Part shown: positions 20,509 through 64,000 of the stretch, in pieces
How the letters are laid out: every line of letters starts with the position of its first letter
How positions within the stretch are numbered: the first letter of the stretch is position 1
Source: Eledone cirrhosa
Taxonomy: Eukaryota
Assembly: GCA_964016885.1 (NCBI GenBank)
Contig: OZ024741.1
Location: 345,340,001 to 345,404,000, forward strand
Reading direction: 5' to 3'
Length of the DNA stretch: 64,000 bases
Program-made: the position numbers and the translations under genes
The notes under the pieces: generated by a model
Seen by the model: the letters and a program-made list of their open reading frames with translations, nothing else
Told to the model about the DNA's origin: nothing
The model's database searches: none

Positions 20509-22239
20509 TTAAGGTAGCATAAATAATCATTGGACTGTAGTCGAGCTGGCACCCTATCTGCAAAACTAGTTTCTTTTTATATATCTACCCCCAGTAGTAT
20601 AACTAACTAATCATTGTTGTTAACTGAGAAATGTATTCTAATCATAACCATACTATATTCATAGGCTGACCAAGATACTCTCATGAAATGACCAAATAAG
20701 GTTTATTTTTCAACATCCACGGAAAGAAACAATGCAGTTATTAATAAGAAGCGTTGAAATTAATGTATGCAAGATTTCACAGCTCTAGCATCAATCCGTC
20801 AGTCAGACTGAACTATGCAGTCGACCCTCATATCGTTTTTTTCTGCAACACAGTATCTAAAACTACTTCATTTCATGTGTTTCTAATTTTATAAAATAGT
20901 GAGACAGGATTTGTAGATTTAGTTGCTATTTCTAGTAGGTCAAGTAACAACATTGAAACTACCTTGTTGGTTGAGCTGCAAAACTAATAAGAATTTTGCT
21001 AGCTTAGAATGCTAAGCCCCCAATAGGCTTTTATTTTCAAGGGATGATGCTTAGCCTTAGCTTGTTTCATGGTGTGAAGCAGATGAGATTATTTGCTATT
21101 ACTGGATAAACACTAATCTACCTGAGCTGCTACATTGTCCTTTAACCTGCTAGAAACAGTAGCTAAATCATATTCTACCATCTTAGAACACGGACAAGAT
21201 AGACACACCTTTGTTCAGGCTGCTTAGTCAAAAATGACTAGGGGCTAAATAACAGTAGTAGTGATTCCTAGTTCAACCTGATGACTATATGGCCAACAGT
21301 ACATCAACATTATATTAAAGATATAAAACCTTTTTGTTAGTTTTTTTTCATCACACACTAAGGACTACTAGCTCAAATGGGCTGAGAGTAAAATGCTGAT
21401 TTTCAGGGGGAGGAGTGGAGACATTGATATTCGAACATTTGGTTGACACCCTAGTATGACTTCTCAAAACCACATTGATTCTTGGGCCCTCACTATACTT
21501 CTCCCTAAAACAATAATGAACCAACAAGATAGTTGCTTGACCTGTTCCAAATAGGAGCTAAATCTCCCCAAAACCAATTCGTATCATCTTAAAAAACAAC
21601 ACAATCCTGAAGACAAAGACACAATGGTCACAAACAAAGCTGACCTGAGGATAAAAAATACATTAAAAAAAACATGAAAAAAAAAAAGTAAAGAAAACTA
21701 CAAGAATTCTGGATTTGTGAATAAAAATTTATTTATCTTAATATGTTTGGATAGTTACCATAGACAATGACAAGCTATATGTTCATATTACATGTGTATT
21801 GTTTCCAGTAGTGGATCACTTCTAAATTCTAAATTACAAACAGAATGTTTTAACATATCATTTACAAACAAATTATTGTATACACTCAAGTATATGCCAA
21901 ATATTGTATACACTCAAGTATATGCCAAGGAATGTGACAAAAAAAAAATAAAATAAAATAAAAATAAAAAAAAGTAAAATGGGGGGTTAGCTTACATATG
22001 CCACCTAAACAATGTAATGATTAGCTGCCTTGGTTTATAAACAGGGGGGAGAGGTGTACCAATTTCTCAGACATAAAATAGGGGGGGGGGGGGTTATTGT
22101 TCACTTACAATGTTTCTCAATGGGGCAAGGGGTGGAGACGTAAGGCCAGTGAATATTGAAAGAGAGGGGAGTGCCTATTTTCCATGTTTGCAAGGGTTAG
22201 ACAGGTTGTCCCATTATGAGACTAGCCTAAGATGTCTTA

Positions 22240-22550
22240 ACACGGACAGGAACCCCCAGCATGTTTGCCCTGCTCACAAAGAGACGCTTGAGTTGGTTGG
22301 CCATGTTAGCTGCATGCAGGATGGCAGAATACCCAAAGACATTTTGTATGGGGAACTTGCCACTGGCTCCAGCAGACCCACAAGAAGATCCATACTCCGC
22401 TATAAAGACATGTGCAAGCAGGACCACAAGGCAGCTCTTAAAGCGGTGGCAGCTGACTGCAGCAGCTGGCAACTTGCCATCAAGTTAGCCATTAAAAAAT
22501 CAGAGCAGAGGAGAGACGTTCAGTGGGAAGAAAGAAGAGCACGCAGATGT
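22240..22550 (+). pseudogene. RTE/BovB-like LINE C-terminal fragment
   Basis: GHVSCMQDGRIPKDILYGELATGS.RPT.R..LRYKD.CK motif. Confidence 0.8.
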
Positions 22551-23030
22551 CAGCTTGGAAAACTACATTAATGTGTGCCAAATCTAAATATTTTTGATAA
22601 ATTTTAATGCTGGCAGCCAAACCGAAAGATCCACTCCTTGTCATAAAAGACTGTGTTGAATGTTATGGGTGGTATTTTAAATCGATAACAACATACGTAG
22701 ATGCAAAACGACAGTCAGGCCATGACAAAATTGTGCACAAACCATATGCTATGCAGTCCTACTCTCAGTACATGGAGGGGGGGGGGGTTAGACAGAACAG
22801 ACAAGCAAATGACTTATTACATGCCGCCAAGTGGTGGAAGAAAGTTTTCTACTTTTTCAAAGTATGTTTCTGCAATGCCCTGGTCATTTGGAAAGCACAC
22901 CATTAGAAGGAAAGAATACAATGAGAGGTGTGAAATACAACTTCATTAAAAAAAATGATGAAGTGCAACAGCACAGACATGGGAGACATTATAAGATTCA
23001 GTAAAAGGACAAACCAAGCCAGATACAAAA
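22551..23030 (+). pseudogene. piggyBac transposase 3' fragment; duplicated at 41401-42125
   Basis: YSQYM.GG(V)DRTDKQMTYY..KWWKKVFYFF motif; near-identical second copy. Confidence 0.75.
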
Positions 23031-23053
23031 AAAAAAAAAATATTAGCGTTTAA

Positions 23054-24960
23054 CCCTTTAGCATTCAAAACGACAAGATTGTGTCCCCTTTCATTTATTC
23101 AAACCGACAAAAACCGACATTTAATACTACACGGAGATCTCCTAAAAATAAACATTGACATCATCGAAATCTCGTCAATTCGAGATTACTGCGAGATAAA
23201 GCCCTTACGCACGAAAATTAACTCTTAGTATAGTTAAAGAACTTGCGATAACACGTGTTTTTAACGTTGAAAGTGTAACATGGCTGCCGAAAGTAACGAC
23301 AACGAATTTGAAGGTTTTACGTCCGACGACATTCGAGATCAAAAAGAAACAAGATAATATCAGTGATTTATCTTCAAACGAATCAGATATATTTATTTCT
23401 GATATATCTGATGATGATGATAGTCACTTTGAAAGTGAAAGAGAAGATATAACTGACACCATTGAAAAAACACCAACGTTGTTGAAAGAAACAACACCGA
23501 TACAGGTTTCAGATTTTACTGAAAATATTGGACCACAACACATTACCACTCGATGCTAAAGCACTGGATTATTTTTTTTTATTTTTACCACAAACTTTCT
23601 TCAAAGTTGTGGCAGAAGAGAAAATCGCTATGCACAACAACAAATTTCTAATATCGGAAAACACGATCTGTTATGGCGTCCAACAGATTCTGCCGAAATG
23701 AAAGCATTTTTTACCTTAAATATTATGTTTGGTATTAAACAATTTCCACGACTGTGGAATTATTGAAGTACTGATATAAGGTTTGGTGACCCTTATATAT
23801 CTAGTATTATGGCAAAAGTAAAATTCATCAAATTAAACCAGTATTTGCATCTGGTTGATACTTCAAATGCCCCTGGTAGAAATGAATCAAATTAAGACCC
23901 ACTGTACAAAGTACGACCATTAATTGAAATGTTGTCAGAAAAATTTAAAAGTGTGTATATACCTGGAAAAAATCTTAGTGGTGATGAATCTATGATTGGG
24001 TATAAGGGTAGGGTTCATTTCAGACAGTATATGCCAGCTAAACCCACCAAATGGGGCATTAAAGTGTGGGAACTGTGTGAATCGGACACAGAATACTGTG
24101 TAAACTTTGATGTTTACACAGGAAAAAAACATAACGGAGAGAGAAAACATGGGTTGGGTTACGATGTGTGGTCGCTGACTCAACCCTTCCACTTTCAACA
24201 CAGACCTATATATTTTGACCGTTTTTTTTTCTTTGGTGCTTTTAGCAGAAGATCTTGCCCTTGTAAATACATACACCTGCGGCACAATAATGAGCAATCG
24301 GAAAGGGCTACCCCAAGAAATAAAAGTTGCGAAACTGAAAAAAAAAGGGGACATTCTCCAAATGCAAAAAGAGAACATGTTAGCCACAGTGTTCAAAGAC
24401 AAACGGCAAATTTTGTTCCGGAGTTCTAACCAACAATCAGGTGTTGGGGCTGAGGGTAGACCTTTAGTTAACCTCTCCTACAATAAATATATGGGTGGGG
24501 TTGACAAATCTGACCAGTACTGTGCTTATTACCCAGTTGGGCGCCCTGAAAAGAAATGGTGGAGATACATCTTGTGGTTTTTAGTGAATTTAACCATTGT
24601 GAATTCTTTTATTGTATTTACTAAAAGCCACAAGGATCCGCCACCACCAAAAGACTACTGTCATATGAAGTTTCGAGTGGACATTGCATCCCAGCTACGT
24701 GGAGGATATACTTCTCACAAACACAAAGCTGGGAAAAAAATCAAAATTAGCAGTGGTTCACAAAGAAAATATTGATTTTCACAAAGTGGAGAGAATTGAT
24801 GGTAGGAGGAAGGTTTGCCGATTGTGCTCTTTGCAAAAGAGAAAAACTGTTAAAGGTTACGCAATCCAAACCCTATTTGTGTTCCTTTTGCAAAGTGCCA
24901 TTATGTTTTGGGCAGTATCACGATAGAAATATTGTCTGACAATATTAAAAACAATATTTT
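23054..24960 (+). mobile_element. piggyBac (PGBD4-like) transposon with frameshifted transposase, right end lost
   Basis: TTAA|CCCTTTAGC left TIR; ATG at 23280; DESMI..KGR..FRQYMPAKPTKWGIK, YFDRFF, YNKYMGGVDKSD..KKWW and Cys-rich C-terminus. Confidence 0.92.
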
Positions 24961-25159
24961 TAAAATATATTCGCTAAAGGTACAGTTGAGTCGAAAGACT
25001 ACATCGTACCGTATTGGATGACATCATGGATAAAACCAGTCGGGAGGGAGGTGGAGAAATTTATAAGTATTTAGCGGAAAGGCAAACGTTGAGAGCCTTT
25101 GCGCTATAACTGTGTAATGTTACCTTCCCCTCCCTCCCGGCTTGTCTCCCTTGCCAAAA

Positions 25160-26174
25160 GTACAGTTCACAGCGCAGACAATATCAAATTACATTTACTG
25201 ATATAAATTACAGCGGGAAACATGACAATAGCAGAATTAGAAACATACTTAATGCCAGCAAGCAATTTCAGAGTCAAATCATGCAGTTACAAAGTATCTA
25301 ACATAATACCATTAACAGATGAATTGGGTACATTACAAGGGACTACAACAACTAACACTACTTTCAACACTAGACCATGGAGGATACATTATGTAGATAA
25401 CAAATATGCACTATTTCCTAATCAAACATGGAATATAAGTCATTTAAATAATAACTGGACACATAACATACCACTAACAAGAGAGGAAGGTAAATTAGGA
25501 GGAATAGTAAGTAATAGACAAATTAGAAAAGATTGGTGGCTCTGGCAAGACACAAAAGCTGCAACACCTACAGAACAATAGAAGAAATACTATCATATCT
25601 AAACACAGGCGACTTCCAATTCTTATACGCTGGCGATACAGCACAATACACATGGATCAATAGAACACCTAGTTGGTTTTCGCTTATGGGGTATTACGCA
25701 TTCAACACTACTTTCGAACTACCAACAATAAAATTAACTAACGGTTTACCTTGTGAAATAAATACATATTCGGGGGCGAAAAAATCACAATGGGCACCAA
25801 CAAAAGATGGGACATGGAGTAGAGATTTAGCAGTAGATAAAACTGAGGAGGAAGAAAATACGCGTAGATCACATCTAACACAGTTTCCTATAAATCCATC
25901 AAATCCACCACCAATAGCAACATTAGACTCAGTACCTATATTAGATTCACAAAATAACCCATCAAAGATATCATTTATGATAACGATAACTTATTACTCA
26001 GAAATAGATTTCAAATATATATCTGGTAGTCCTCAAACAATGGGTTGGATGGCTTGGGGTGCAGCTAACGCAACAATAATGAATTCAGCAAAAACTAACC
26101 TATGTAAATGGCCACAAGGTTTACGTAATTATGAAATAACGAGAACTGGTAAAACTCACCAAGCACATCGTTAA
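25160..26174 (+). pseudogene. VP: Endogenous parvovirus-like element 1: capsid protein, 5'-truncated with one frameshift
   Basis: FRVKSCSYKVSNIIPLTDEL..TTFNTRPW..YVD resembles hamaparvovirus/densovirus jelly-roll strands; paralogous pieces at 30400-30950 and 56380-56487. Confidence 0.8.
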
Positions 26175-26223
26175 AGTAGTATTACAATGTAACCATTTTC
26201 CATTTCAGAACGTTGGACATAAA

Positions 26224-27843
26224 ATGTACATGTGTATCTATCCTTGGATAGAAGAAAACGATTTTTTGGGGGATAAAGGTTTAATACCGATAGAACATTA
26301 TCAGCTTAATGTACATAAATATTACGAAGATGAAAGTAGAAAAGATGTATACCAAACCAATACTAACTACAAACTAAAAGAATTCATCCAATCAACGAAT
26401 GCAACCGTAATTTACCATCCGAAAAATAACGCACTTTGTCAAAAGAAAGAATGGAATGCCTTTAACCACTTCCACATTATATAGCACAGTATTGTACGAC
26501 CTGGTGAAAATCAAAAAATGAAATACATAAGAAGTCTCTACAAAAAAGCGACTAAACTAAGCAGATACATACCTGAATGTCAACGCATCAAATTTCCATC
26601 AAGCATGGCAAACTACTTCTGTCGACCACCAAGATACGTATTAATTAAAGGAAAAGATAGCATAAACGAACTATTCACCGATTGGTGTATGCAGGAATAC
26701 GTTCCTAAACCAGACTTAACAATCAAACCAATAAGTAACAAACAACCTACTGAGGAACCAACATTTAAATCAAAGTCAGGAACAACATTAACTCTGTTCA
26801 ATTACCTAACATATATCTTCACTTCAAAAAGATTTCGTACAGAACAAGACATGAAATCACATTGGTTACATAGACCAAACAATGACAACTTCATGCGAGC
26901 AATTTCTCATCCGATGTACAATTCGGTTATGAAAAAAGTCCTAGAATGCGAAAAATAAAAAAATCTAAATCAACCATTCAAAGAAAAATTTGAAAACATG
27001 CCATGGGAATACTTCGATAACAACAAGTGCTACATGGACAGAGACGTTTCTCTGAAAATATTCCCATCAATACTTCTTACTCAAAACATAATTGAATCTA
27101 CATTTGTAACAACAGTATGGGAATTACTGACACAGAAGAAACCGAAAAGAAACTTACTCGTATTAAGAGGCATACCGAACACTGGAAAGTCAATGATAGC
27201 AAGAAGTGTTGCTGACATGTTTACACATGTATCAACAATTCAAGGTATCAGTAGCTTCCCGTTTCAAAATCTGGTAAACGTTGAAATCGGTTTAATTGAA
27301 GAACCAAATTTCACGTTAGAAACATTACAAACTTTCAAGAAACTTGCCGAAGGCGTGGACACTGAGGTTGCGATAAAATTTAAACAAGATCAGGTGGTCC
27401 ATCGCACACCACTTATCACAAGCAACAACAAATTCGACCAAAACGCACCGCTGTCGGAACGAATTGCATTCATAACAAGATACACCGAATATCTATTCAA
27501 AGCAACTTCACCATTTTTGAAACATGTTAAGAAAAAATTAAATCCATTTATATGGAATGAACTATTCTATGAACGTTGCTTTAGTAACCTCATCAATGAA
27601 GATAGCTCATCTTCCGACGACAATCTTAATTTAATTTTAGATGAATACGAACGACTGCAAGAAGAAGACAGGAACAGATTTCGGACTCCGTCTCCTAATA
27701 GAAGCGGGGACACCGTCAGATTGGAGTGCAACGAAGAAGAAAACTCAGACTCAGACAAAGAAAACCAACCAAGAGAATGTGCGTCTAATGTGCGTACAGC
27801 ACAGACGCACATTAGACGTGGGCAATGCGACTGCACCTTATAA
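26224..27843 (+). pseudogene. NS1: Endogenous parvovirus-like element 1: NS1/Rep (HUH endonuclease plus SF3 helicase), disrupted
   Basis: NHFHII HUH motif (~26465-26481), motif III-like MANYFC, Walker A GIPNTGKS, Walker B LIEEP, FKKLAEG, motif C ITSNN, acidic/Cys C-terminus. Confidence 0.93.
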
Positions 27844-27893
27844 ATTCAAGAGCGGGCGCTGTATCACCAAATAGCAGCTGACACTCGAATGAC

Positions 27894-28904
27894 ATGGACC
27901 TCCAGGAGAAGAATAAGTTCAACGAAGACTTCTTTCAGGACATAACCAATGTTGACAACCTCACCGCTTATACCTGGGTGTATAGGTGGGCAGAAGAAAA
28001 GGAATTTAACTGGCGGAAACCTGACTTATACAAGAAACCACACCAAGTCATTAATCACCAAAGTTATAAAGAAGAGCACATCTTGTTATTTCGTATTCTG
28101 TGTACATTTTCTAGTATTATCATTTATCACCCTCGCAGACCCATTAGAGTAAAGCATTGTAATGACATTGACCACTTTCATGTTATTATCTGACACTCTA
28201 ATCATCCGAGTAGTCAACATTCTTTCCTCAAGTTGAAGAAGAGTCTACTAACTAATACTGGCTACGATTTGAAAGCGGTAAAGATACAGTCACCGGCAGG
28301 ATTCGCAGAATATCTAAAGTATGAAGTGGTGAAAGAATGGGGTAAGAAAGAATTGAACCCGCTAATGTGGCTCGTAATATGGCATGAGTTTATAACCGAT
28401 TACAAGGAAAATAAATACCTATCTACAAAGTTGACGTCGTTACCAGAGAGCAAGCATTATATTAACCATATGGGATCGTTTAAAAAGAAAGTGACGTCGA
28501 GAAAGAGACCATTACCGGAGGCTACTACTTCATGTATTGAGGTAAATAAATGTGGTAGTGGTGTGAGTTACTGGTTCCCTTCTCATTCAACTAAAGAGAT
28601 TGAAGATGACGACGATATTAAGAGAAGCAAAAATGATGATACTGATCGTGACTATAAAAAGGCAGAAGAATATTGGAAACCCTTACTTACAGAACCGTTG
28701 CTGAATAATAACGAGTACTTGGAAGACCTGAATAACGAAAACTGGGATGAAGAGTTAAAAATAGACGAAGGAATAAAGGCGCGAGATATAATATCGGGTG
28801 CTGATGAAGCGATAGCAGGATTGTGCAGAATGGACAGCGAAGATTTACAGCAGTGTTGTTTATTGCATGGGACAGACTTTTCTTCATGTAATTTTGGTGA
28901 ATAA
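27894..28904 (+). pseudogene. NS1: Second parvoviral NS1 (different lineage), HUH domain fused in frame to the NS1 C-terminus with no helicase
   Basis: NLTAYTWVYRW, DHFHVII(*=W)H, PAGFAEYLK, then KKELNPLMW (cf. KKKLNPFIW in EVE1); AATAAA at 28900-28905 overlaps the stop. Confidence 0.8.
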
Positions 28905-28959
28905 ACAGTGTGAAACTTGATATATTTGTTTGTCTTTATTGAATCTGATAAAGTAGGTC

Positions 28960-29178
28960 ACCATTGAAAAGTTCTAAATATTTTTCAATGGTCGAAGGTG
29001 TCATGATGGCGGCTGAAAACAAGATGGCGGATGGATTGGAATATCTCCTATGCTATTGATACTATTATTATATTATTATATATATATAGTAGTATAGTAG
29101 TAGTAGAATGTATTATAGAAGAGGAGTGATGACGCCATGGCCGCCATGACACCTGTGACCATTGAAAAATATTTAGAA
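28960..29178. repeat. Candidate parvoviral terminal hairpin
   Basis: TTCTAAATATTTTTCAATGGTC..AGGTGTCATG..GGCGGC pairs with GCCGCCATGACACCT..GACCATTGAAAAATATTTAGAA around an AT-rich centre; lies just after the viral poly(A) signal. Confidence 0.65.
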
Positions 29179-29194
29179 ATAAATATTGTGATAA

Positions 29195-29424
29195 TTAATG
29201 ATGTGGTGCACCAACGGAACTTTGTCGATCCTGTAGACCCTCATGTGCACACGCAACTCATAGAGAACACATGGAGCCGTGCGAAGAAAAAGCTTCGTCG
29301 CCAGCATGGGACCAGCAATGCTTTATTCCTCTCATATCTAGCTGAATTTCTTTGGCGGCAGAGAGTTGGTGCCAACAAGTTTGGCGAAATGCTAAACTGT
29401 ATTGGAGCTATTTACTGGGTGTAG
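29195..29424 (+). pseudogene. Merlin (IS1595/ISXO2-like) transposase 3' fragment
   Basis: VVHQRNFVDP..HTQLIENTW..SYLAEFLWR; close relative of the 53566-54540 ORF. Confidence 0.88.
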
Positions 29425-29959
29425 TAAAGATTTTAATAAGGTTGGTAAATTTAAATTTTATATGCAACAAACGTTTAAATATGTAATTTTTTTCAACACA
29501 CAACAGTTTAAATATGTAATTTTTTTCAACACACAAGTTTAAATATGTAATTTTTTTCAACACACAGAACGGACAGTATCAACAACAACATTTACAATCG
29601 AAAATGAAAATAATTCATGACAATAAATGTAGTTTCATTTTCATGATGTTGAAAATGAAAATAAATTTACTTTCATTCTTCAGACCGTTAAAAGTCAGGT
29701 ATGCCTTGCATGCCAGTATTATTTTCTCGTTTTCTCTCAAAGTATGTTTCATTACCTGTTGTAATGCACGCACCACAATAAAACATAATTTATTGTTGGC
29801 ATATGTTGGACATAATTCGTCGTGTTTTCATTATTCATTGTTGAATGAAGAGAGACAAGTTTGTAACCAGAAAAATGATGTAAAAAATACTTCTATGTCT
29901 TATTTTGTATTGAATTTGTGGTTGGCTTGCTAGATTCACCAATAAACCAACACACTAAA

Positions 29960-30395
29960 TACTTTTGAAAATAGCAAAACTATTAGGAATATATATAAAA
30001 AGGCTTCTAATTTCAACAGAAACGTACCAGAAAGCCAATGAGTTAAATTTCCGAGCAGTCTCACAAACTATCTTTGTCAATCACCGAGAAAACTTATATG
30101 TAGCGGGTGCAACAAACTTAATGGCAACTTCGCTACTTGGTGTGAACTTGATTACATTCCTAGAGAATCAAATACACCAGCCAAAAAAAAAAGAAGAAGA
30201 AACTAATGTCGCATTTAATAAAGGATCGTTGATTTTTTACTGTTCACCCCCCTTCTGGAGTCATTTATTTCTACAAAGAGAAACGATGTATTGTCCATTC
30301 ATCGACAATCATTCATTTCCTTTAAGCCCAATATTTTCAAAGAAAAGAAAACAAGAAGATAACTGTTTACAACAAGAAGAAGAAGATATCGAAAG
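29960..30395 (+). pseudogene. NS1: Parvoviral NS1 fragments (relative of EVE1 NS1)
   Basis: Alternative frame reads KTIRNIYKKASNFNRNVPESQ*VKFPSSLTNYLCQSPR..FATWCELDYIP, aligning to EVE1 KYIRSLYKKATKLSRYIPECQRIKFPSSMANYFCRPPR..FTDWCMQEYVP; then a PPFWSHLF acidic tail. Confidence 0.75.
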
Positions 30396-30399
30396 CGAA

Positions 30400-30950
30400 A
30401 TGAGTGGCGACATTCAGCAGCCTGATTCAAGTGCATCTAAAGTTGGACCACAAGTGGAGGATCTGGAGCAAGAATAGCAAGCGATATACCAACTACTGTA
30501 GGTGATAACAATCCTATTGTATGCAAACAATTTTCAAGAACATTTTTTCATTACCTTGACGCATTCGACGTACCTATAGATGTCTGCAAATACAAACTAA
30601 ACGTAACTCATGAACAATATACATCACTACAATTCATTCACCGAATGGTAGAAATACGATATACTGATTTACGAGCATCAATAACAAAAGCAGAATTGCA
30701 AACATATATGTATCCATGCATCGCTTGGAGAGTTAACAACGTAGGATTCCAAGTCAGTAACATCATTCCAATTACAGACGAATTAAGTACTGTACAAAAT
30801 ACAACAACAACAAATACAACTTTCAATACACGACCATGGATAGCGTGTTACGTTGATACAGATGCACGATTTTTTGCAAACAGAATAGCAACTATACCAC
30901 AAGTGAATAAAAACTTCGGAGAAAACATACCGTCAACAAGAGACGCTGGG
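30400..30950 (+). pseudogene. VP: Parvoviral capsid N-terminal half (relative of EVE1 VP)
   Basis: MSGDIQQP..GGSG..KQFSRTFFHY..WRVNNVGFQVSNIIPITDELSTVQNTTTTNTTFNTRPW. Confidence 0.82.
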
Positions 30951-32625: not shown

Positions 32626-32664
32626 TCACTGTAAAGCATTGGCAGTATCATTATATTTTTTCAC

Positions 32665-34387: not shown

Positions 34388-34506
34388 AAAAAGGAAAACA
34401 GGGCGTACAATACAATACAACGAAGATATGAAACGCCCACTACAATATATATCCGGGCATTTCGTTAACAAATAGAACACAGGCACTTAAACACATCAAA
34501 AAGCAC

Positions 34507-34514: not shown

Positions 34515-34551
34515 ACGTTATCGAAAACAAGTCACCACACAGCAACAAAAC

Positions 34552-53015: not shown

Positions 53016-54698
53016 GGCATACGTCAAAACGGCCGGTCGCAAAAGTGAAACTAATTTTTGACAGTTACGTACGTCATTACTTTCAATTTGGATTGTGAAT
53101 TTGTTTATTTTTTTACAACAGGTCTCAATAGTGAAAGTGAATTTTGTTGATGGTGTTAATTAGTATTGCGTGTACGTGATAATTTTTGTTTAATTCTTTT
53201 TTTGTGTATTGTGTGTACGGAAAATTTTTTTTTAAATAATGACATTGTGTGTTGAAATAAATAAATATTGAAACTCCTTATTTAAATAATGACATTGTGT
53301 GTTGAAAGAAATATTGAAAATCCTTATTACACCCTATAAATAGCTGAAATACAGTTGATCATCTCGCCAAACTTGTTGGCACCAACTCTGTCGCCAAAGA
53401 AATTAAGGTAGGGTCATAAGAAGGACAGAGAATCATAAGGGATTTGGGTCAAAGGGGCAGCTTGGGGTCAGAAAGGCAGATATCTGTCAGAAGGGCTGGG
53501 AAAATTTTTTTTTTTTTTAAACAAAGCACTGAAGGGCTGGATTGTAATACAGTGTCACATCAAATATGGCTGGACGAGTGTATGGTCGCGTTACCTTAGT
53601 TGAAGATATTTTGGATACCAATGCTATTCTTAATCGTTTTGAAACAGTGTATACACTGTGTCCGGCGATACACGGTGACACGTTGTGTATGTTACAGTGG
53701 TTGGCGAGTCGGCGTCTGTTGGCGAACAGTGTGAATTGTCCTGTCTGCAATGAGGCGTGCACATTGCAAAGAAATTCTGAGGGGATTGATAAATGGAAAT
53801 GGCGATGCGCCCACGACAAATTTAGTCAATCGGTGCGACGGAATTCTTTATTTTATCAAAGCCGTGTTCGACTCGAACACCTTATTGGCATTATGTATAT
53901 GTGGTGCTACGATCATCCACAAACTGAGATGTTCAAAGAAACAGAACTTAGCAACCAGACAATTATAGACTGGTGCAATTTCCTTAGAGAAATTTGTGAG
54001 CAGTATTTGGAGGCGAATCCTCAACAGCTTGAAGGATTCGATAAGAATGGTTCGTCGATCATTGTAGAGATCGACGAATCAAAATACTTTCATCGAAAGT
54101 ATCATCGTAGCCAGTGGAGACAAGGCCACTGGGTCTTCGGCGCTGTAGAACGCCATTCTGGACACTGCTGCCTCATCGCAGTCCCAGATCGAAGCCGTGA
54201 GACTCTTGTCCCCATGATACAGCAATGGATTTTGCCAGGAAGCCACATCATGTCCGATGGTTGGGCTTCCTATTCGGATATTGAAGACATTCAAGGTGGC
54301 ATTTACCTCCATGATGTTGTTGTGCACCAACGGAACTTTGTAGATCCTGAAGACCCTAATGTGCACACACAACTCATAAAGAACACATGGAACCGTGCAA
54401 AGAAAAAGCTTCGTCGCCAGCATGGGACAAGCGATGCTTTATTCCCCTCATATCTAACTGAATTTCTTTGGCGGCAGATGGTTGGTGCCAACAAGTTTGG
54501 CAAGATGATCAACTGTATTTCAGCTATTTATAGGGCGTAATAAGGATTTTCATAAGGTACATCAATTTATATTTCATATGCAACAAATGTATAGTTATTT
54601 TTTAAACAAACAAATTCACAATCCAAATTGAAAGTAATGACGTACGTAACTGTCGAAAATTAGTTTCACTTTTGCGACCGGCCGTTTTGACGTATGCC
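53016..54698 (+). mobile_element. Full-length Merlin DNA transposon
   Basis: ~90-bp TIRs GGCATACGTCAAAACGGCCGGTCGC.. / ..GCGACCGGCCGTTTTGACGTATGCC; 8-bp TSD CTCTTTTT. Confidence 0.93.
53566..54540 (+). CDS. Merlin (IS1595/ISXO2-like) transposase, uninterrupted 324-aa ORF
   Basis: CPVC zinc ribbon, IVEIDES, WVFGAVER, SDGWASY, HTQLIKNTW (catalytic E appears replaced by K). Confidence 0.9.
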   Translation: MAGRVYGRVTLVEDILDTNAILNRFETVYTLCPAIHGDTLCMLQWLASRRLLANSVNCPVCNEACTLQRNSEGIDKWKWRCAHDKFSQSVRRNSLFYQSRVRLEHLIGIMYMWCYDHPQTEMFKETELSNQTIIDWCNFLREICEQYLEANPQQLEGFDKNGSSIIVEIDESKYFHRKYHRSQWRQGHWVFGAVERHSGHCCLIAVPDRSRETLVPMIQQWILPGSHIMSDGWASYSDIEDIQGGIYLHDVVVHQRNFVDPEDPNVHTQLIKNTWNRAKKKLRRQHGTSDALFPSYLTEFLWRQMVGANKFGKMINCISAIYRA

Positions 54699-54914
54699 CT
54701 CTTTTTAATGTATGCTGAATAAGCAAGAGTAGAAAACAAGACTTATTACTTATTAAAATTGAACTGCTAAGAGGAAATCAATGAGTTTCATATATTTGAT
54801 AATACAGCTACTTCAGATAAAAATAGGGATGTAGACAAATTAAACACAAATTACTCGTTAGACACAGACAGAATGCCCAATGATTTGAATAATGGCTATA
54901 GATAGGATACTCTA

Positions 54915-55090
54915 CATCCCCATAGTACTACTCGGTATCCGCACTTCAATTAAAGAGGACCTTGGATTCTCTCCAGCCGAGCTTTTGTACGGTACTACTT
55001 TATCTCTGCCAGGGCAGATGCTTGCCCCAGTTGATCTTTCTACTCAGGACCCTACACTATGTGACCCATTTGCGTTCGTATTTTCCCCTG
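54915..55090 (+). pseudogene. Gypsy integrase C-terminal fragment
   Basis: PIVLLGIRTSIKEDLGFSPAELLYGTTL.LPG. Confidence 0.85.
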
Positions 55091-55687
55091 GTCAGCTCTG
55101 TCTATCTGGTCTCGTCTGAGGTTTTTCACCAGAGAGCGTGATTGAGATTGACCATGTATTCATACACAATTCCCATTGTTCAGATTGACCTTATTGCATA
55201 TGAAAATGTTGCTATTGCGAGGTGCGACGTAGTTCCATTACATGGCTATTTAGGTCGAAGACAAAGGAATTGCCATGACTCATTTTCCTTAATGTTTCAT
55301 TAAAAGAACTTACCCAATAGTCTAATGCTTTGCTTGTAACCAAATCCAGCAAACCTAAATCCTATGTTAAGATGGATAGATATGCTGATCTAATACATGT
55401 GGACACACATTACAGAAACTATTATTATAAAACATTGATATTAATGTAATTATTATATAGTATAGTGGTTAAGGACTAGGTAAAATTGAACAAGCCAATA
55501 TATATATATATATAGACTCCTAGGGATGGAAAAATGGCTAATAATAACATTTTACAAACAGCAGGAGTGAACAAATTTAGCATCGGAAAGATGTCAAAAT
55601 CAGATACCATTGTTTAATACAGCGACACTAGTGTTAATAGAAAATAAATTAACCAAACAAAATATTGATTACTGAAATAAGTACTGA

Positions 55688-55842
55688 CTTTTGCAGCAAC
55701 TCTTGTCTAGGAACCGGAATATTTTGAGATGGAGATATGACTGCTGCATAGACAAAAGTCTGATAAACACTGATGAATTGTGGTTTGCCACAAATAATAT
55801 TGAAAAAGCAAAATGCATTCTTGAAGGTACTCCTACATATAC
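55688..55842 (+). pseudogene. NS1: Parvoviral NS1 helicase snippet
   Basis: CIDKSLINTDELWF..NNIEKAKCILEGTPTY; nucleotide-similar to ~47132-47275. Confidence 0.78.
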
Positions 55843-56379
55843 AAAGCTGAGGTTACTATGATCAATTAAAAATAACCTAAATTCAGTAGTGGCCCCAGCA
55901 TAGTTGCAGTCTTGACTGAAACAAGTAAAAGTATAAATGAGGTTAAAAAATTATAATCTTATTAACTACATCTTATCTCAGACATACTCTTAAGTTCTTG
56001 GAGTTGAGTTGAGATTCAAAATTATAATAAGGATACTTTTTTTTTTAAAATGTTAATGAAAAAAATATTTAAAAAATGAAGAGAAAAATGGCAAAATGGA
56101 TAATGGATATATCATATAAAATTCCTCCTGGTGTGAGTTCAAATCCAGTCCAGGTCAATTTTGATGGTCCATCTTTCCCAGGACAATAAAATATAAGCAT
56201 CTGCTATAATACTAAAGTCAATACAATTGACAAATCCTTGAGAGCAATGCCTACTGAAACCAGTAAAAGAATAAAAAGGTATTGTGTATAGGTAGCTGTA
56301 ACAGGTTATAGTGGTACTATGGTTCATGTACACCTCACATCAAGAACAAATTGGTTCACGAACAATTTTTCTGAACAAG

Positions 56380-56520
56380 TAACGCATTAATAAGCTATTC
56401 GGCAAAAACTAACTATGTAAATGGCCGCAAGGTTTACGTAACTATAAAATTACGCGAAGTGGTACTACCAGACAGGCCATGCGTTAAAGTAATATTACCA
56501 AAAAACCTCTTTCATTTATA
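56380..56520 (+). pseudogene. VP: Parvoviral capsid C-terminus (relative of EVE1 VP)
   Basis: SAKTN.CKWPQGLRNYKITRSG..R* versus EVE1 SAKTNLCKWPQGLRNYEITRTG..R*; downstream TAAAGTA.TATTAC also conserved. Confidence 0.85.
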
Positions 56521-57411
56521 CTTTCAGATAGGGACCATCGGACTCTTACGCGAATTGTTAGAAAGGATCACAAAAGTACAGCTCCCAAAATTATTGCAGA
56601 GCTTAATGACCACCCCAAGAATCCAGTTTCCACAAAAACTGTTCGCCGGGTGCTGCACAAAGCCAGATTTCACGGGAGGGCTGCAATCGGAAGACCACTG
56701 CTTTCAAAAACAAACGTTGCAAAGCGTTTAGAGTGGAGTAAAAACCTACAGAATTGGTCCCTAGAGCAGTGGAAGAATGTTATTTTCTCGGACGAGTCAT
56801 CCTTTACCTTATTTCCGACCACCGGCCGAGTATACATGTGGAGACAGCCAAAAGAAGCATTTGACCCAGACTGCCTTCTTCAAACTGTTAAACATGGAGG
56901 AGGATCTGTGATGATCTGGGGGGGCTATATCTTGGAAATCCGCTGACCCAATGATTTCCCTTCATGGCAGAATTAATAGTCAAAACTATTTAGGCATTTT
57001 ATCTGATCAAATTCATCCTATGGTTGTGGAACTGTTTCCGTGGGGAAACAGTAATCTTTCAGGATGATAATGCACCAATTCACACAGCTAAAGTTGTTAC
57101 TGAATGGCACGAGGAACATTCTAGTGAAGTTGAACATCTTATCTGGCCACCACAGTCCCCAGATCTCAATATTATTTAACATTTATGGTGCATTTTAGAA
57201 AAACAAGTAAGGAGTCGATATCCTCCACCATCACTACAAGAACTGGAGACTGTTTTAGCTGAAAAATTCATTTGAAAACAATTCAAACTTTGTACGAGTC
57301 CATACTTCATAGAATTCAAGCTGTAAATTACTGCCAAAGGCGGTCCTACCCCATATTAAAATAAATTTGTTTGAAATTTTAAGGTGTTTCCATTATTTTG
57401 TCCAACCCCTG
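56520..57411 (+). mobile_element. 5'-truncated Tc1 transposon
   Basis: WKNVIFSDES, TVKHGGGSVMIWG, FQDDNAPIH, WPPQSPDLNII; right TIR ..TTGTCCAACCCCTG|TA. Confidence 0.92.
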
Positions 57412-57412
57412 T

Positions 57413-57580
57413 AGATATATAGAATACGTTTTCGTATGCGAATCGCCGTTTCTGAAACACGTAAGAATCAGAAACGCCAAATTGAAGAATCCAAGACTTC
57501 AACGAAACTGACAACTCCAACAAAGAAAACTACGACCCAAGAGCAAAGTGGAGAAAATACGCAAGGAAATTGAACTCAGA
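57413..57580 (+). pseudogene. NS1: Parvoviral NS1 C-terminal snippet (relative of EVE1 NS1)
   Basis: RYIEYVFVCESPFLKHVR versus EVE1 RYTEYLFKATSPFLKHVK; DNSNKEN versus DSDKEN. Confidence 0.72.
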
Positions 57581-57629
57581 AAGATATGCTGAATCGGCGA
57601 CAAAATTATAATTATATTCATAATGCATC

Positions 57630-57959
57630 GTCAAAGCTGCCTTCCAAGAGCTCGATTGGGAGGTTCTTCACCACCCAGCGTATTCTCCAGATCTCGTGCC
57701 AACCGACTCATCTTTTCCGCTCATTATCGAACCAAATGAGGGGCGTAACCTTCGACAATGACGAGGACCTTGCAAATTGGCTTAACAACTTCTTCGAGTC
57801 CAGGTCTGGCGATATGGCATCAATACATTGGTCGATAGGTAGGAGCAGGTCGTAAACAATGACGGAAAATACATACTTGACTAATTTGTTATTATTCTTA
57901 TTATTTTCAGTAAAACTTCTTAATAAAAAAAACGGCGAGAAATTTATGTTACAACCTAA
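57630..57959 (+). mobile_element. mariner 3' fragment
   Basis: WEVLHHPAYSPDLVPTD..LFRSLSN; right TIR ..TTATGTTACAACCTAA|TA. Confidence 0.85.
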
Positions 57960-58538
57960 TACTTCATCTTAATAACGGAAATGCCTTAAATGTATTCTCG
58001 TGCTTATGCGTGATAATTGAAGAAAATTTAAAGAAATTTCAAAACTTAATTAGCTTTTAAAAAAAAAGTTGTTTATTTCCACATAGATAGGAACTTTTAA
58101 GTTCAGATGTGTATCATCACATTAAATTAATGAAAAGCATTATTAAAGGTTTATATGATTAATTTTGCAAGGGTAAGATCGCTTCATTACTTCAAATGTT
58201 TCAAGACGTAATACATGCCATGAAAAGACCTTAGGTGGCGTATTCTTAAAATGGATTTAGTTTGTAGTCTATTTTTGAAGCTTACGTGTTTATGAAACTC
58301 CCGTTTATCATTTAAATGTAACAATAATTTCAAAGCTCCGTTAAATGTAGAGTAGTTATGAAAAGTCGTCAGTTTTCATGTTTAACCTTTAAACATATTG
58401 TTAACATAGAAAGATATTGTTGTTTCCAAAAACTGGCTGGGTCTGCTCGACGAGTCACACCTTAAAAAACACGCCAAATAGTTTCTCTGCGTGTTGTTAT
58501 GTTACGATTTATGTTGATCTTATGCAGATCTCTATCTA

Positions 58539-59410
58539 TCAGGTTAGTGCAAAAGTAATGTCCAATTTATAGGAAGAATGTTTCAGAGAGAATTTATCAA
58601 ATTTGTGCCTCTTGTTATAGTTTCGAGATGTCTCTGACTAATTTATACCTTTTTCTTTCAGATTATCTACATTTTGTTCATAATTGTCAGCAACATTTGC
58701 ACCCATGTTTGCCCCATCTAAAGATCATATTAGAAATGTTTTACACTGAGTTTCATAAAGGTGTCAATGCAAGCACAGCAGCAAAATCTATTCAGAGCGC
58801 TTATGGGGTTAATGCAGTGAATGAAGGAAGTTGCAGGAGGTGGCTTTCCTGTTTCCGAAGTGGGGGTTTCAGTTTGAAAGACGAGCGAAAAAACTTGATT
58901 CCGATGTGTTGGAAGCTATTGTCTCAGAAAACCCCACCATTACCACTAGGGAACTTGCAGAACAATTAAACGTAGTCCATACAACCGTGCTACGCCAACT
59001 GAAAAGGATCGGAAAGGTTTCAGTGGTTGGAAAATGGGTCCCACACGAGCTGTCTCCAGATAATCTGCAACGTGTTGCTTGTTGTGAATCATTGCTTTCG
59101 CGACACCTTCAAGCACCATTTTTAGGTAGGCTTGTTACAGGTGATGAGAAGTGGATCCTTTACCATAATGTTAAATGCCGCCGATCTTGGATCAGTCGAG
59201 GAGGAAGACCAGTTCAACAACCGAGAGGAGGACTTCATCCAAAGAAGATCATGTTGAGTGTATGGTGGGATATTGAAGGAATAATCCATTATGAACTGTT
59301 AGACAACAATCAAACAATTAATGATAATCTTTACTGTGATTAACTTTGTCGTGTGAAGGCAGCTTTGAACCAAAAGGGACCTTCCTTGATCAACAAAAAG
59401 GGTGTCATCT
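58539..59410 (+). mobile_element. mariner 5' two-thirds
   Basis: TA|TCAGGTTAGTGCAAAAGTAATG TIR; GKWVPHELS, LVTGDEKWILY.N, HPKKIMLSVWWD. Confidence 0.92.
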
Positions 59411-59569
59411 TTTATTTATTTTTTTTTTTTCTTCTGCCTTTATGGATGTCGAGGAAAATTTGTGGTTTTCCCGTTGTTCTGAACATCTAAAAAAATTTCT
59501 GCATTCTTTTTACGTGGATATCACTTATTTTTGTACGTCCAAGTTGATACAGATTGACAATGAGTGGTC

Positions 59570-60110
59570 CTAATTTACTTGCGTTCTCAGGTTATCCCAC
59601 TCTGGTTTGCACAACTCGACGCATATTTCGCTGCGAGTGGAGTGAAAACAGAGCAAAAGCTCAACGTTTTGATAAGCGGCATTCCTTCTTCACTCGCCAC
59701 AACGGTGAAGGATTTAATAACAGACCCGTCAGCCGGTATTTCGTATGATTCGTTACGAGCAGAAATATTGACAAGAAACAGTCGTTCTACTGAAAGCAGA
59801 TTTCATTCATTGTTAGATGACGTGTGTTTAGGCGACAAAACACCGTCTGAAATTTTGTGAGATATTAGGGACCTCAGCGACTCGACCGACGAAGATAGCT
59901 CATTTATAAAAAAAACTATTTTTCTCTCGCCTGCCAAGCAACGTCCAAATTATTTCCGCTGATCGGATCATAGAATTTTCTTGAAAGGTTACCGCCCCAG
60001 ACTCGTGTGTTGCTTCTTCACTTTCGAACCAGCCTCTCTCGACGCGCGAGGATGCCATGTTAAAGGCTGTTGATGCTTTGACACAGAAAGTCGCTCGTTT
60101 ATGCAGGGAG
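59570..60110 (+). pseudogene. Gypsy gag fragment
   Basis: P.LWFAQLDAYF..P....YDSLRAEIL.R..LL....LGDKTPS..LF.SRLP.NVQ. Confidence 0.75.
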
Positions 60111-60439
60111 AATAGGCTGTATTCCCGGTGCAATAAACATTTCAATATGTTATTTTTGGGTTTCAACACGCACAAAATGAAAATAAATATGCGAAAATGA
60201 AAATAAATTTCATTTCCAACGTGAAACTTAAACCATTGGCTTTTTCATTTTTAACATAAACCTTGAAATTGGGCATTACTTTAAGAATTTTTTTTCGTGG
60301 AAAGTTTTTATAAAATCGAATATGTATACCGATTCCCATAGGATCTATGTTCCACACATAAATTTTCAAAGGAATTTGTGCAGTAATAAGAAAATTATTA
60401 ACAATATAACGGGGTGTCCTATACAGTGTTTGTATAACT

Positions 60440-60975
60440 TATTTTCGGCAGAGAAATGTGGTTCTACAAACGTGTTTTTCTGTTGAAGACCCGCTTTGCT
60501 TTTGCAGTAACATCGATGGACTTTTCGAATGTTTATCACAAAATCATGATCCCGCAGAGTGGCGTTTATTTATTGACTCTTCAAAACGAAGTTTAAAAGC
60601 TCTACTTCTCCATAATGGTAATTTGAAACCCTCCATTCCTATTGCACACTCCGTTCATCTTCACGAATCATGAGAATATGGAACTTTTACTTCACGCCAT
60701 TGCCTATGAAAGATACTCATGGAAAATATGTGGAGATGTAAAAGTCATTGGAGTGTTAATGGGATGCAGTCAGGTTTAACAAAATACTGTTGTTTCTTGT
60801 GTTGATGGGATAGTCTAGTAACTGACAGACATTATTCGGAATCAAACTGGCAAACAAGAACATCATACCAGCCAGGACTGGCTAGCGTCAAGAATACATC
60901 TCTTTTAGATCCATGTAATGTCTTATTACCTCCTTTGCACATAAAGCTTAGACTGATGAAACAGTTTGTAAAGAC
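60440..60975 (+). pseudogene. Chapaev3-type transposase fragment
   Basis: EWRLFIDSSKRSLKALLLHNGN..PSIPIAHS, WKICGD.KV, LLPPLHIKL.LMKQFVK; paralogous to 37678-39871. Confidence 0.85.
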
Positions 60976-62270
60976 ACTACGTTCATACTTTGACGGCCTA
61001 CCACGTCTCTCGAGCACGGACGCCAAGTTCTGCGAAAGACCGATCACAGCCACTGAGCTACAGGACGCTCTAGGCCACTGCAGGAAACGCAAATCACCCG
61101 GTCTAGATGGTCTACCCTATGAGTTTTACATAGGCATGCCAGACTTGTTCTCTGGCGTCCTCGAAGCCGTCTACTGCAACTGGCAGCAGAACGGGAGAAT
61201 TCCCAGTTCTGTAAGCAAGGTGCGTAGTAACGCTGATCAGGAAAGACAAGAACAAGGAGGACGAAATAATTAACTTCAGGCCCATAACTCTCCTAAACAC
61301 ACAGTTAAAGATTTTGGCCAAAAATATAAACAACAGTACACATACATCAACACGAATAACAAAAACTTGGCGGTGGAAACCGAGGGGAACACTTTCGTCA
61401 AATCAGAGACAGCACCACACCTAAAACTTATAAGGGTTTTGATGGAAACCTACCAGAAACTCATGGGTCAATTTTCGCAGGACATTGGAAACCCATTAAC
61501 CGCATCCTCTTGAAACGTTTCCCCACCCCACCCAAATGGAGATTGAACAACCCGATCTCCAGGAAACGAAAAGGTAAGTGCATCTTTTCGTCCTTTTTGC
61601 CAACATGGTAAATTTACGAGCTGGAAGCGTGAATGTGTGTGGCCTAGGGATGCCCTGGAAACAGGGCCAACTTTTAAACGACTTTAGGTCACATGGTATG
61701 GATGTGATAGCCATTAGCGCGTCCAGGATCCACAATAAGCAGCAACTAACCCCCATCTTTGATGACCGAGATCTACGCATCTCTGTCAGCCAGGAGATGG
61801 AGGGGGAGTAGCTGTTATGTTTCGGAAAAACCTGGACCTCGAAATACAGCAAATACACTTGGACCCAGTCTGAAGGCTCCATCTACAACAGTGTTGTAGA
61901 TGGAGCCTTCAGACTGGTGACCGTGACATAGCTGGAGTTCTTTCTGGGAACGTCTAACTCTTTGCTTTTCGTGGGGGGCTGGAATGGTATCTTGGACGCA
62001 CGTTGGGACTATGTAGGAACATGCCTCAGTAGAGGGGAGTGCAACAGCCTCAAAAGTTTAATCAGCCAATTCCAACTGGCCAATAGGTATCGACTAGATT
62101 TCCAGACTGCACCACAGTGGACGTGGACAAATCGCAGTGGGACAACTAGATCGTATTTAGATAGATTCTTAATTAGAGAGAGAGACAGAAAAATGTAAAT
62201 AAAGCTGTCCACAAATGTACATGGTTGCCTATTCGGACCACAAACTAGTCACTTGCATAGTCAACCATGA
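60976..62270 (+). pseudogene. Tx1/L1-like LINE pieces: RT start, ORF1-like tail, then APE endonuclease
   Basis: KSPGLDGLPYEFY..NFRPITLLN..KILAK (60976-61322); SVNVCGL..GGWN.ILD..WTWTN..SYLDRFL..SDHKLV (~61605-62255). Confidence 0.85.
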
Positions 62271-62281
62271 TAGAACACATA

Positions 62282-63841
62282 CCGTATATACTCGCACTTT
62301 TTTAACGATAAATAAGTATAAATTTTTGGGGTGCGACCTATCCGATCGACATCAGACTGACCAATGATTTTTCATACACTTAATCAACGATGGGTATTTA
62401 TAAAAATAACTTAATATTTTTTATTATTTAACATAATAATTTCATATATCTAACTTCTTATACATATATTTCTTGATTTTAAATTTTTTACTAAAACTTA
62501 TTAGTATTTATGGTTTTTTCTATATGACCGAACCATCCATCACTAAAATCCATAGAAATGCATACCCGGTATTTAAAATGTGATTTCATTGTCTTAGCGT
62601 TGCTATGAACACGTATTGTGACGTATTTACTTTAACAAGAAACAGATTATTGCATGTGGCGTTTCTTTTCAAAATTAGCAAGTGAGAAAAGTTGATAGTT
62701 GAAATTTTTTTTATAATTCACTGAGAAATATGAATTCCGGTAAGAGAAAAAGTTATCAAACAGTTTTCAAGTTAAAGGTGGTTGGTTATGCAGAAGAATT
62801 TGGAAATAGATCAGCAGAAAGGGAGTTTGGAGTGTCAGAAAAGGTGGTGAGAGGTTTGAGGAAACAAAAAGACAAGCTGGGAGAAATGCCTAAATCAAAG
62901 AGAGCAGCAAGGTTTGGAGCATCACCATGTCAAGATCTTGAAAAAGAGATAAATGATTGGGTTTTAGATATCAGGGAAAATGGACACATTGTTACAAGAC
63001 TTTCTATAAGAACAAAAGCCCTTCAACTTGCACCAAAGTACCACTTATCCCAATTTAAATCGTCAGCAGGATTTTCCACCAGGTTTATGAATAGGTTTGG
63101 ACTGACTCATCGCCAAAAGACATATTGCACAAAAGCTGCTAAAAGATATTGATGACAAAGTGCACAATTTTGTAAAATTTGTGTTAAAGGAAAGAAAAAT
63201 ATAGCCAACATGGATGAAACACCCATGTACTTTGACATGCCAGGCAACACAACTGTGGATAGTGTAGGTAACAAAACTGTTACAGTCAAAACCACAGGTC
63301 ATCAAAAACATTTTACTGTTGTTCTAGCATGCCAGGCTGATGGACAAAAACTTCGCCCTATAGTTATTTTCAAAAGGAAAATTATGCCGAAAGAGAATTT
63401 TCCAAGCGATGTGATTGTGAAGGTACATCCAAAGGGCTGGATGGACGAGAACTTAAAGTTATGGCTTGATGAAGTGTGGATGAAAAAGCCAGGGGCATTA
63501 CTGAAGCCACAAAGTTTGGGATGTTTCGATCTCACTGCTGTGAGTCTGTAAAGGCTAAGCTGAAGGATTGTAAAACAAGACAAGCAGTGATTGCACCTTA
63601 GTCTTACAACCCCTTGATGTGGCAGTAAATAAGCCCTACAAGACATATCCGTAAACTCTGGACTTCTTGGATATCAGGTGAAAAAGAAATTACCAAAGGT
63701 GGATCAGTGAAAAGACCTGGCTTGAGATTAGTGGTGGAGTGGTTGAAGGAGGCTTGGGAAAGTATCCCTGAAGAGCTAATAATGAAGGCTTTCAAAAAAA
63801 TGTGGCATATCAAATGCGATGGAGGGGACCGAAGATGATGA
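62282..63841 (+). mobile_element. pogo-family transposon (Brinker-like DBD, CENP-B HTH, DDE), disrupted
   Basis: TA|CCGTATATACTCG TIR; KSY...FKLKVV.YAE..GNR.A.REFGVSEK, MDETPMYFDMP, KGWMD, LQPLDV.VNKP. Confidence 0.9.
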
Positions 63842-64000
63842 TGCTCTCTTTGATTTAGGCATTTCTCCCAACTTGTCTTTTTGTTTCCTCAAACCTCTCA
63901 CCACCTTTTCTGACACTCCAAACTCCCTTCCTGCTGATCTATTTCCAAATTCTTCTGCATAACCAACCACCTTTAACTTGAAAACTGTTGGATAACTTTT
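63842..64000 (-). repeat. Inverted copy of the pogo 5' coding region
   Basis: Reverse complement of ~62747-62905; runs off the window end. Confidence 0.9.

Follow-up and report, generated by a model that had tools for sequence, protein, structure and literature searches.

The window described here is a stretch of 64,000 nucleotides from the cephalopod Eledone cirrhosa (C2, positions 345,340,001 to 345,404,000; genome of 3.0 Gb in 1796 contigs), and the subject of the analysis is a block, beginning at about 22 kb, that is packed with fragments of transposons and parvovirus-like viruses coding almost without exception on the plus strand. Stop-free open reading frames (ORFs) of at least 60 amino acids (aa) were scanned against Pfam on both strands from 21.5 to 64 kb (E<0.001). 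On the plus strand 23 of 105 matched transposon or virus families, namely piggyBac (PF13843), Merlin (PF12762), hAT (PF14291/PF05699), Gypsy reverse transcriptase (RT), RNase H and gag, pogo, Tc1, mariner, Parvo_NS1 and viral PLA2, whereas on the minus strand only one of 79 did so, a BrkDBD match at 63779-64000 in the arm of an inverted duplication. No Pfam match came from the 102 minus-strand ORFs of 45-59 aa, which gives 1/181 for both size classes, and none was found among 48 of the 72 shorter plus-strand ORFs that were scanned. A tblastn library built from the window and 20 other regions (matches below 120 bp excluded, the rest merged) gave 32 matches between 22,077 and 64,000, 31 plus and one minus, from 10 transposon groups and parvovirus-like capsid (VP) and nonstructural (NS) genes; Gypsy contributed 3/32, and a further plus-strand piece of a long interspersed element (LINE) was read by eye at 52.5-52.9 kb. 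In four arbitrary 50-kb control regions the orientation was mixed, 16 plus versus 15 minus. The statement of the sequence-only reading that the fragments from 22 to 64 kb all code on the plus strand is upheld by both counts.

The sole minus-strand tblastn match and two smaller minus-strand pieces are arms of local inverted duplications: 53315-53386 sits inside a Merlin element, 63839-64457 mirrors 62292-62909, and 44107-44198 mirrors 43963-44054. The first two had been named as the only exceptions; both are indeed inverted arms, but the third had been overlooked. Two internal duplications detected by self-BLAST (22550-23026 with 41400-42123, 87-93% identity; 24972-25037 with 33267-33332, 98% identity) reduce the independence of the strand counts. 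After merging duplicates about 30 independent units are left by hand count, and with a cautious 24 units the chance of a one-strand pattern is p=1.2e-7, or 0.007 expected per 3-Gb genome. The common orientation extends to cut-and-paste elements that have target duplications of their own, so the block is not one duplicated unit. Four sequencing runs of one study, possibly from the source sample and not an independent support, cover 30/30 bins from 21.5 to 41.4 kb, and read contigs bridge 21983-23111 and 26187-29345, so that no sign of mis-assembly is seen there; no RNA run was listed for 25.2-35.1 kb, which carries no information on expression. The one-strand feature is real and non-random.

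The block had been placed at 22110-64000. Its left edge holds, the first element starting at 22077, but on the right the plus-strand elements run on beyond the window to about 73.2 kb, giving a block of about 50 kb in all, with a transposon-coding fraction of 0.51 versus 0.17-0.20 in the flanks. From 73 to 84 kb the orientation is mixed: short interspersed elements (SINEs) lie on the minus strand at 73.0 and at 80.3 kb, as does a Tc1-like piece, recognised by eye, at 73.6-74.2 kb, and an RTE at 75.2 kb is on the plus strand. Between 84 and 104 kb the minus strand carries Gypsy, Penelope, three Tx1-like pieces in tandem, RTE, mariner and a CRE-like element (by eye), and microsatellites reappear. 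The left flank carries an R4-like LINE on the plus strand (5.9-7.5 kb) and an RTE on the minus strand (16.8-18.9 kb), the latter beside degenerate tandem repeats with units of about 80-130 bp (14395-16435). The block is poor in microsatellites, as claimed, but the preceding 1-22 kb are not uniformly rich in them: they are dense only from 1 to 14 kb and already sparse from 14 to 22 kb. By BLASTN, a tRNA-type SINE common genome-wide has one clear copy in 22-64 kb (49443-49648) versus many in the flanks, among them 1436-1619, 10587-10770, 14000-14083, 18952-19035 and 19783-19983. Rfam gave no match in 94 kb.

The elements of the block are listed below with coordinates, strand and basis of assignment; C12 and C18 are loci elsewhere in the genome that are treated further on.

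22077-22568, plus: 3' fragment of an RTE-like LINE, first element of the block (tblastn group RTE; presumed label, in part from RT-bearing relatives)
22550-23026, plus: C-terminal piece of piggyBac with an NS1-like scrap (PF13843; duplicate of 41400-42123)
23051-24975, plus: broken piggyBac-like transposon (PF13843 on three ORFs), right end fused to a viral capsid scrap
24970-27840, plus: parvovirus-like insert A, capsid pieces followed by NS1 with stop codons (PF01057, E=3.6e-13 on 26959-27840)
27882-28901, plus: N-terminal part of NS1 from a second, divergent viral lineage (61% to the PF01057-matching NS1 at C12; 41% to 34693-35082)
29119-29503, plus: 3' fragment of Merlin, IS1595-type (PF12762; 85% to 54314-54613)
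29959-30950, plus: third viral insert, NS1 and capsid scraps (41% and 52% aa identity to insert A)
31287-32567, plus: hAT transposase fragment (tblastn group hAT; no Pfam match, label presumed)
32635-35848, plus: parvovirus-like insert C, PLA2-domain capsid gene followed by broken NS1 (PF08398, E=3.6e-8)
37678-39871, plus: Chapaev3-like DNA transposon with near-intact ends and TAA duplication (ends by eye; no Pfam match, label presumed)
40419-40886, plus: Merlin fragment (PF12762, E=2e-4)
41400-42285, plus: piggyBac piece and NS1-like piece, partner of 22550-23026 (self-BLAST, tblastn)
42294-45305, plus: hAT pieces with Charlie-type ends (end motifs, tblastn), split by a Tx1/L1-like LINE fragment at about 42950-44201
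45239-46195, plus: Gypsy RT/RNase H fragment (PF00078, PF17917, PF17919)
46500-46850, plus: N-terminal fragment of pogo/Tigger (PF04218)
47030-47449, plus: NS1 helicase scrap of another viral donor (48-55% to NS1 at C12 and C18)
48364-49318, no orientation: non-coding element with 173-bp inverted arms (inverted-repeat arms)
49662-52518, plus: hAT transposon, right end only (PF14291, PF05699; left end and duplication not found)
53016-54698, plus: Merlin element with 95-bp inverted ends and 8-bp target duplication (PF12762, E=3.3e-21)
54913-55170, plus: Gypsy integrase scrap (tblastn, translation)
55640-55950, plus: NS1 helicase scrap (62% over 39 aa to NS1 at C18 and C12)
56380-57400, plus: capsid scrap, then Tc1 transposase fragment (PF01498, PF13358)
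57574-60276, plus: two mariner pieces (PF17906, PF01359, PF23055), the second (58558-60276, TA duplication) carrying a Gypsy gag insert
60440-62280, plus: Chapaev-like scrap and Tx1/L1-like LINE fragment (tblastn)
62292-64000, plus: pogo-like element with a 620-bp inverted duplication reaching 64457 (PF03221, PF09607, PF03184)

Where no Pfam family was matched, the labels Chapaev3, Tx1, CRE, R4-like, R2-like, Charlie and SINE are those which we presume to apply. Nearly all inserts are fragmented. Intact target-site duplications had been claimed for hAT, Merlin and Chapaev3 elements; the claim is borne out for Merlin (8 bp) and, by eye and with one terminal mismatch, for the TAA of the Chapaev3-like element (missed by the automatic scan), but none was found at the hAT elements of the window, and the pieces at 42294-45305 lack an intact one because the flanking 8-mers differ. 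The Chapaev3-like element has 41 genomic matches, most at 93-98% identity, its closest dispersed copies at 97-98%; two of the 41 lie in examined blocks, both oriented as their block. The Merlin ORF reaches 92% protein identity to other genomic copies. The broken piggyBac is joined at its right end, by a short stretch common to both, to a 66-bp copy of a capsid gene from 8 kb away (24960-25040, 33260-33335), which suggests a microhomology-mediated rearrangement within the block. Two degenerate C2H2 zinc-finger-like remnants were read by eye on the plus strand (39872-39990 and 47650-47760); they would be antisense within the precursor predicted below.

The viral pieces come from at least five donors, and all are broken and lie on the strand of the block. 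The donors are represented by insert A (25.0-27.8 kb), the NS1 N-terminus (27.9-28.9 kb), the scraps at 30.0-31.0 kb, insert C (32.6-35.8 kb) and helicase or capsid scraps at 41.9, 47.0, 55.6 and 56.4 kb. Where they overlap, the larger pieces share 38-52% aa identity. Insert A is 64-91% identical in DNA to inserts at 16 other loci, and the NS of insert C is 69-84% identical to the PF01057-bearing NS1 at C18. Hallmarks of parvovirus-like genomes are present: an NS1 superfamily 3 helicase (PF01057), a PLA2-domain capsid (PF08398) and, for the capsid of insert C, best Atlas clusters composed of VP1 capsid proteins (score 0.93). In monosense parvoviruses the NS gene lies upstream of VP. The order is the opposite here, since VP precedes NS on the same strand and within less than 200 bp in 16/17 adjacent pairs, taken from the window (24970-28901, 32635-35848) and from inserts at C12, C27, C25, C4, C1, C10, C14, C5 and C2. 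Cressdnaviricota make up most of one lower-scoring Atlas cluster that has PLA2 capsids (0.87, a lead only). The donor family may be atypical, perhaps an undescribed or a circular group. No free-virus relative was present among the viral contigs searched, a homologue search for the viral protein returned four unnamed proteins (43-73% identity), and no relative was found among solved capsid structures. The solitary inserts at C10 and C14 contain inverted duplicated capsid segments, from which hairpin RNA could form if they were transcribed.

The one-strand pattern of the window is not unique in the genome. The window NS1 gave 64 genomic matches, and 16 other NS1 loci were compared, seven chosen at the beginning for several or strong matches and nine further strong ones afterwards, 20 kb each. 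Seven of the 16 are multi-family, one-strand, microsatellite-poor blocks (C12, C18, C25 at 7.9 Mb, C3, C27, C841 and C25 at 0.59 Mb), C13 and C4 tend toward one strand, and the remaining loci are solitary inserts. Over the 16 loci, 118 of 138 non-viral matches are co-oriented with the virus, or 49/57 when counted by family and locus. The eight blocks, window included, contain 0-15 microsatellite bases per kb of non-transposon DNA versus 22-122 in flanks and controls. Blocks span 50-125 kb, are 27-67% transposon- and virus-coding with all classes represented, and are rich in DNA transposons, LINEs and Helitrons. The Helitron, NS1, VP and Tx1 seeds of the library were checked by Pfam; 7/18 seeds or by-eye ORFs had no match. 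The C12 block extends over about 8.974-9.098 Mb, its part at 8.98-9.04 Mb being known from Merlin and capsid matches only, also on the minus strand. In a BLASTN comparison of non-coding DNA the blocks had only dispersed repeats and transposon ends in common, and no promoter motif. The C18 and C3 blocks include tandem arrays of R2-like and Tx1-like LINE copies, all in block orientation. Elsewhere, at C1:48,450,810-48,478,564, three Merlin-family matches in 28 kb are all on the minus strand, a candidate further one-strand block.

Three sister blocks start behind host genes, and this geometry indicates in which direction they might be transcribed. At C18, FAN1 (PF08774, a single locus with a PDB match) is on the minus strand, and from its stop, placed from the splice acceptor and translation of the last exon, it is 263 bp to the first plus-strand element. 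The gene at C12 is of the Gar1/Naf1 family, which we take to be NAF1, and is on the plus strand, and its predicted last exon ends 3016 bp before the first minus-strand element. At C25, 12,177 bp separate the block from the end of a terminal exon of 892 codons; the assignment of that exon as JADE/BRPF-like depends on a PF13832 exon located 8 kb upstream on the same strand, and the terminal exon itself found no homologue among proteins above 1562 aa, none in PDB and an Atlas lead of only 0.79. Downstream of these three genes 72/74 element matches are antisense and two sense, all viral matches being antisense. Inside the FAN1 and NAF1 introns elements are few and mixed, 3 antisense versus 2 sense. 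The minus-strand block at C25:0.58 Mb has a candidate plus-strand host exon 12 kb upstream of it, at C25:570,176-570,270.

The far ends of the blocks were inspected for poly(A)-like sites, AATAAA hexamers being ranked by the T content 20-70 bases downstream. At the left edge of the block in the window lies the following feature.

21664-21733, minus: candidate poly(A) site, AATAAA then a U-rich tract, that would end the predicted precursor

The site at 21,733 (downstream T 0.66) ranks 1/81 among minus-strand AATAAA sites from 13 to 84 kb and 1/326 over 214 kb. The far edges of C12 (9,100,499) and C3 (58,111,019) also hold the top site, each 1/94, so that a top-ranked site marks the far edge in 3/4 blocks whose far end was examined, the window included. 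The edge zones contain 6/81, 10/94 and 6/94 of the sites, from which our arithmetic gives about 0.002 for three of four by chance. On the opposite strands the edge site is not top-ranked. Sites of that strength number 0 inside the blocks (362 kb) versus 7 in 688 kb of control strands. As to the host genes, the NAF1-like and JADE-like genes have moderate poly(A) sites after the stop, and FAN1 has neither AATAAA nor ATTAAA within 1.2 kb after it. Avoidance of poly(A) hexamers was considered as a cause of the strand bias and is unsupported, AATAAA not being depleted.

From these observations the block is probably a unistrand source locus of PIWI-interacting RNAs (piRNAs), transcribed on the minus strand, with both the piRNAs and their precursor being predictions. 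One long Pol II transcript would start to the right of about 73 kb and end at the poly(A) site at 21.7 kb; because this precursor would run on the minus strand, the trapped transposon and parvovirus-like fragments would be copied antisense and cut into PIWI guides. Insertions would arrive both ways, the antisense ones being kept because they would silence their own family and the sense ones being lost, and deletion and local duplication would later fragment the inserts. Transcription, piRNA processing, selection and antiviral effect are what we infer. The genome contains two PIWI-clade loci, whose exons at C2:93.5 Mb and C24:1.1 Mb fit PIWI structures best (at exon level), and two AGO-clade loci. 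A minus-strand cluster had been proposed from the window alone, and its direction gains support from the antisense sister blocks behind three genes and from the poly(A)-like sites at block edges, while its role as a piRNA source is still a prediction.

Several results weigh against this reading. Neighbour genes were identified for 3/8 blocks only, albeit none in the contrary geometry; in the little DNA covered at four other blocks none was found. Over about 110 kb upstream of the window's block no host exon or promoter was recognised (Pfam on 125 ORFs at 64-104 kb, on flank ORFs and on 150/188 shorter ORFs at 74-134 kb), and an exon finder able to recover the FAN1 and NAF1-like exons gave no convincing coding exon there. 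A strong minus-strand splice acceptor at 70,904, followed by single-copy DNA, lies at the upstream edge; as the last exon of an upstream gene it was set aside as a weak lead, since acceptors of equal score occur on both strands and its 41-aa frame has no homologue; it might also belong to the precursor or to a distant gene. A transcript arriving from beyond 104 kb would read the minus-strand run at 84-104 kb in the sense direction, so that transcription may start from the block's own promoter at 73-84 kb and not by read-through; such a promoter could be divergent, with the 84-104 kb run possibly a second arm, although this run is microsatellite-rich. The poly(A) score was devised post hoc, after seeing the data, and fails at C27, where the best far-edge rank is 8/43; plain AATAAA on the predicted strand is not depleted (64 observed versus 47 expected). 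Finally, the first seven sister loci were chosen for several or strong NS1 matches, and the nine picked second gave 20 co-oriented versus 10 opposite matches and are mostly solitary, so many viral inserts lie outside blocks.

The bias could also arise without piRNAs, if the block belonged to a host gene or a long non-coding RNA, as its long transcribed tail or as an intron, from which sense insertions were purged for disturbing splicing or termination. An antisense bias of LINEs and long terminal repeat (LTR) elements is established for mammalian introns, as outlined in PMC3088655, three sister blocks do adjoin host genes, and the window may have a host exon as well. However, these blocks come after the predicted last coding exon, the elements in the FAN1 and NAF1 introns themselves are mixed, and a purge would leave unexplained both the enrichment in coding fraction over the flanks and the piling up of viral inserts; we regard this explanation as unlikely. 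A former piRNA cluster that is now silent, or expressed only in another tissue or stage, would be in keeping with the fragmentation of the inserts, and mollusc clusters vary by stage and tissue according to the account in PMC6128900. Against silence stand the young families inside, with a Chapaev3-like element and a Merlin ORF close to their dispersed copies, and the intact poly(A)-like site at the block end, which make it quite improbable. A mechanical origin with no small-RNA selection, by local duplication, nested insertion, orientation-biased integration or cDNA capture, can draw on the internal duplicates, the tandem LINE arrays of C18 and C3 and the junction fused at a short shared sequence, but is the least probable of all, given that the duplicates are a small part of the block, that eleven unrelated groups with different integration chemistry share one strand, that cDNA capture does not account for elements with terminal repeats and target duplications, and that it predicts neither the host-gene geometry nor the poly(A) sites.

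A unistrand piRNA source would have parallels in other animals, none of them complete. Core read-through clusters of Aedes, as outlined in bioRxiv 10.1101/2022.08.22.504762, are unidirectional, lie directly behind a host gene, contain antisense viral elements and can be as long as about 180 kb. Their geometry of a gene followed by an antisense block recurs at C18, C12 and C25. However, the Aedes clusters are described as depleted of transposons except for some LTR elements, while the blocks here are rich in all classes and in parvovirus-like viruses of the single-stranded DNA type; for the window, moreover, an upstream gene was not found in about 110 kb. Flam-like unistrand clusters were found from strand bias alone and then confirmed by small RNA (PMC10643416, in outline); dense one-strand transposons are common to them, to Drosophila flamenco and to the block, but the flam-like bias concerns Gypsy LTR elements only, whereas in the present blocks it extends to DNA transposons, LINEs, Helitrons and viruses. 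Since the defining content features are absent (the transposon depletion of Aedes, the Gypsy-only bias of flam), the block would be a variant and not a proven piRNA cluster.

With regard to viral content, parvo/denso-like inserts of starfish and sea anemone and a rhabdo-like insert of the dog whelk give negative-sense transcripts and 5'U primary piRNA-like RNAs, as summarised in PMC6085071; those cases are transcript contigs without genomic context, and the mollusc case is an RNA virus. In Penaeus monodon, clusters of inserts of IHHNV, made of fragmented parvovirus DNA and host repeats, have been proposed as piRNA-like loci (PMC9357335, in summary); their fragments are scrambled in both directions, and the two clusters of stated length measure 7 and 15 kb, in contrast to the single strand, several lineages and 50-125 kb of the blocks. 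Clusters of snail, oyster and other bivalves are transposon-enriched, hAT-type and Gypsy elements included (PMC6128900, PMC11067994), those of PMC11067994 measuring 2.7-17 kb; strand architecture, read-through origin, viral content and cephalopod small RNA are not among the features described in the portions of these accounts consulted. The supposition that a virus-archiving cluster would be new for cephalopods stands in so far as no such loci were met in a literature survey of titles and abstract beginnings with few subscription journals, to which the Octopus bimaculoides locus lists in the supplements of PMC12479628 may be relevant. Since piRNAs from parvovirus-like inserts are already on record for starfish and sea anemone, in the summary given by PMC6085071, only the host group and the genomic architecture would be new.

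The analysis has yielded eight loci mapped in the genome, each with a strand prediction, together with three predicted 3' ends and the names of three upstream genes. [quoted passage not shown] It is conceivable, though we put it forward only tentatively, that giant 3' extensions of housekeeping genes (FAN1, the NAF1-like and JADE-like genes and others), each with one strong distal poly(A) site, hold a memory of transposons and DNA viruses in this cephalopod; such extensions would be convergent with those of mosquitoes, would trap several lineages from an undescribed parvovirus-like group and might constitute the main small-RNA antiviral defence in a phylum for which a dedicated siRNA pathway is reported missing.

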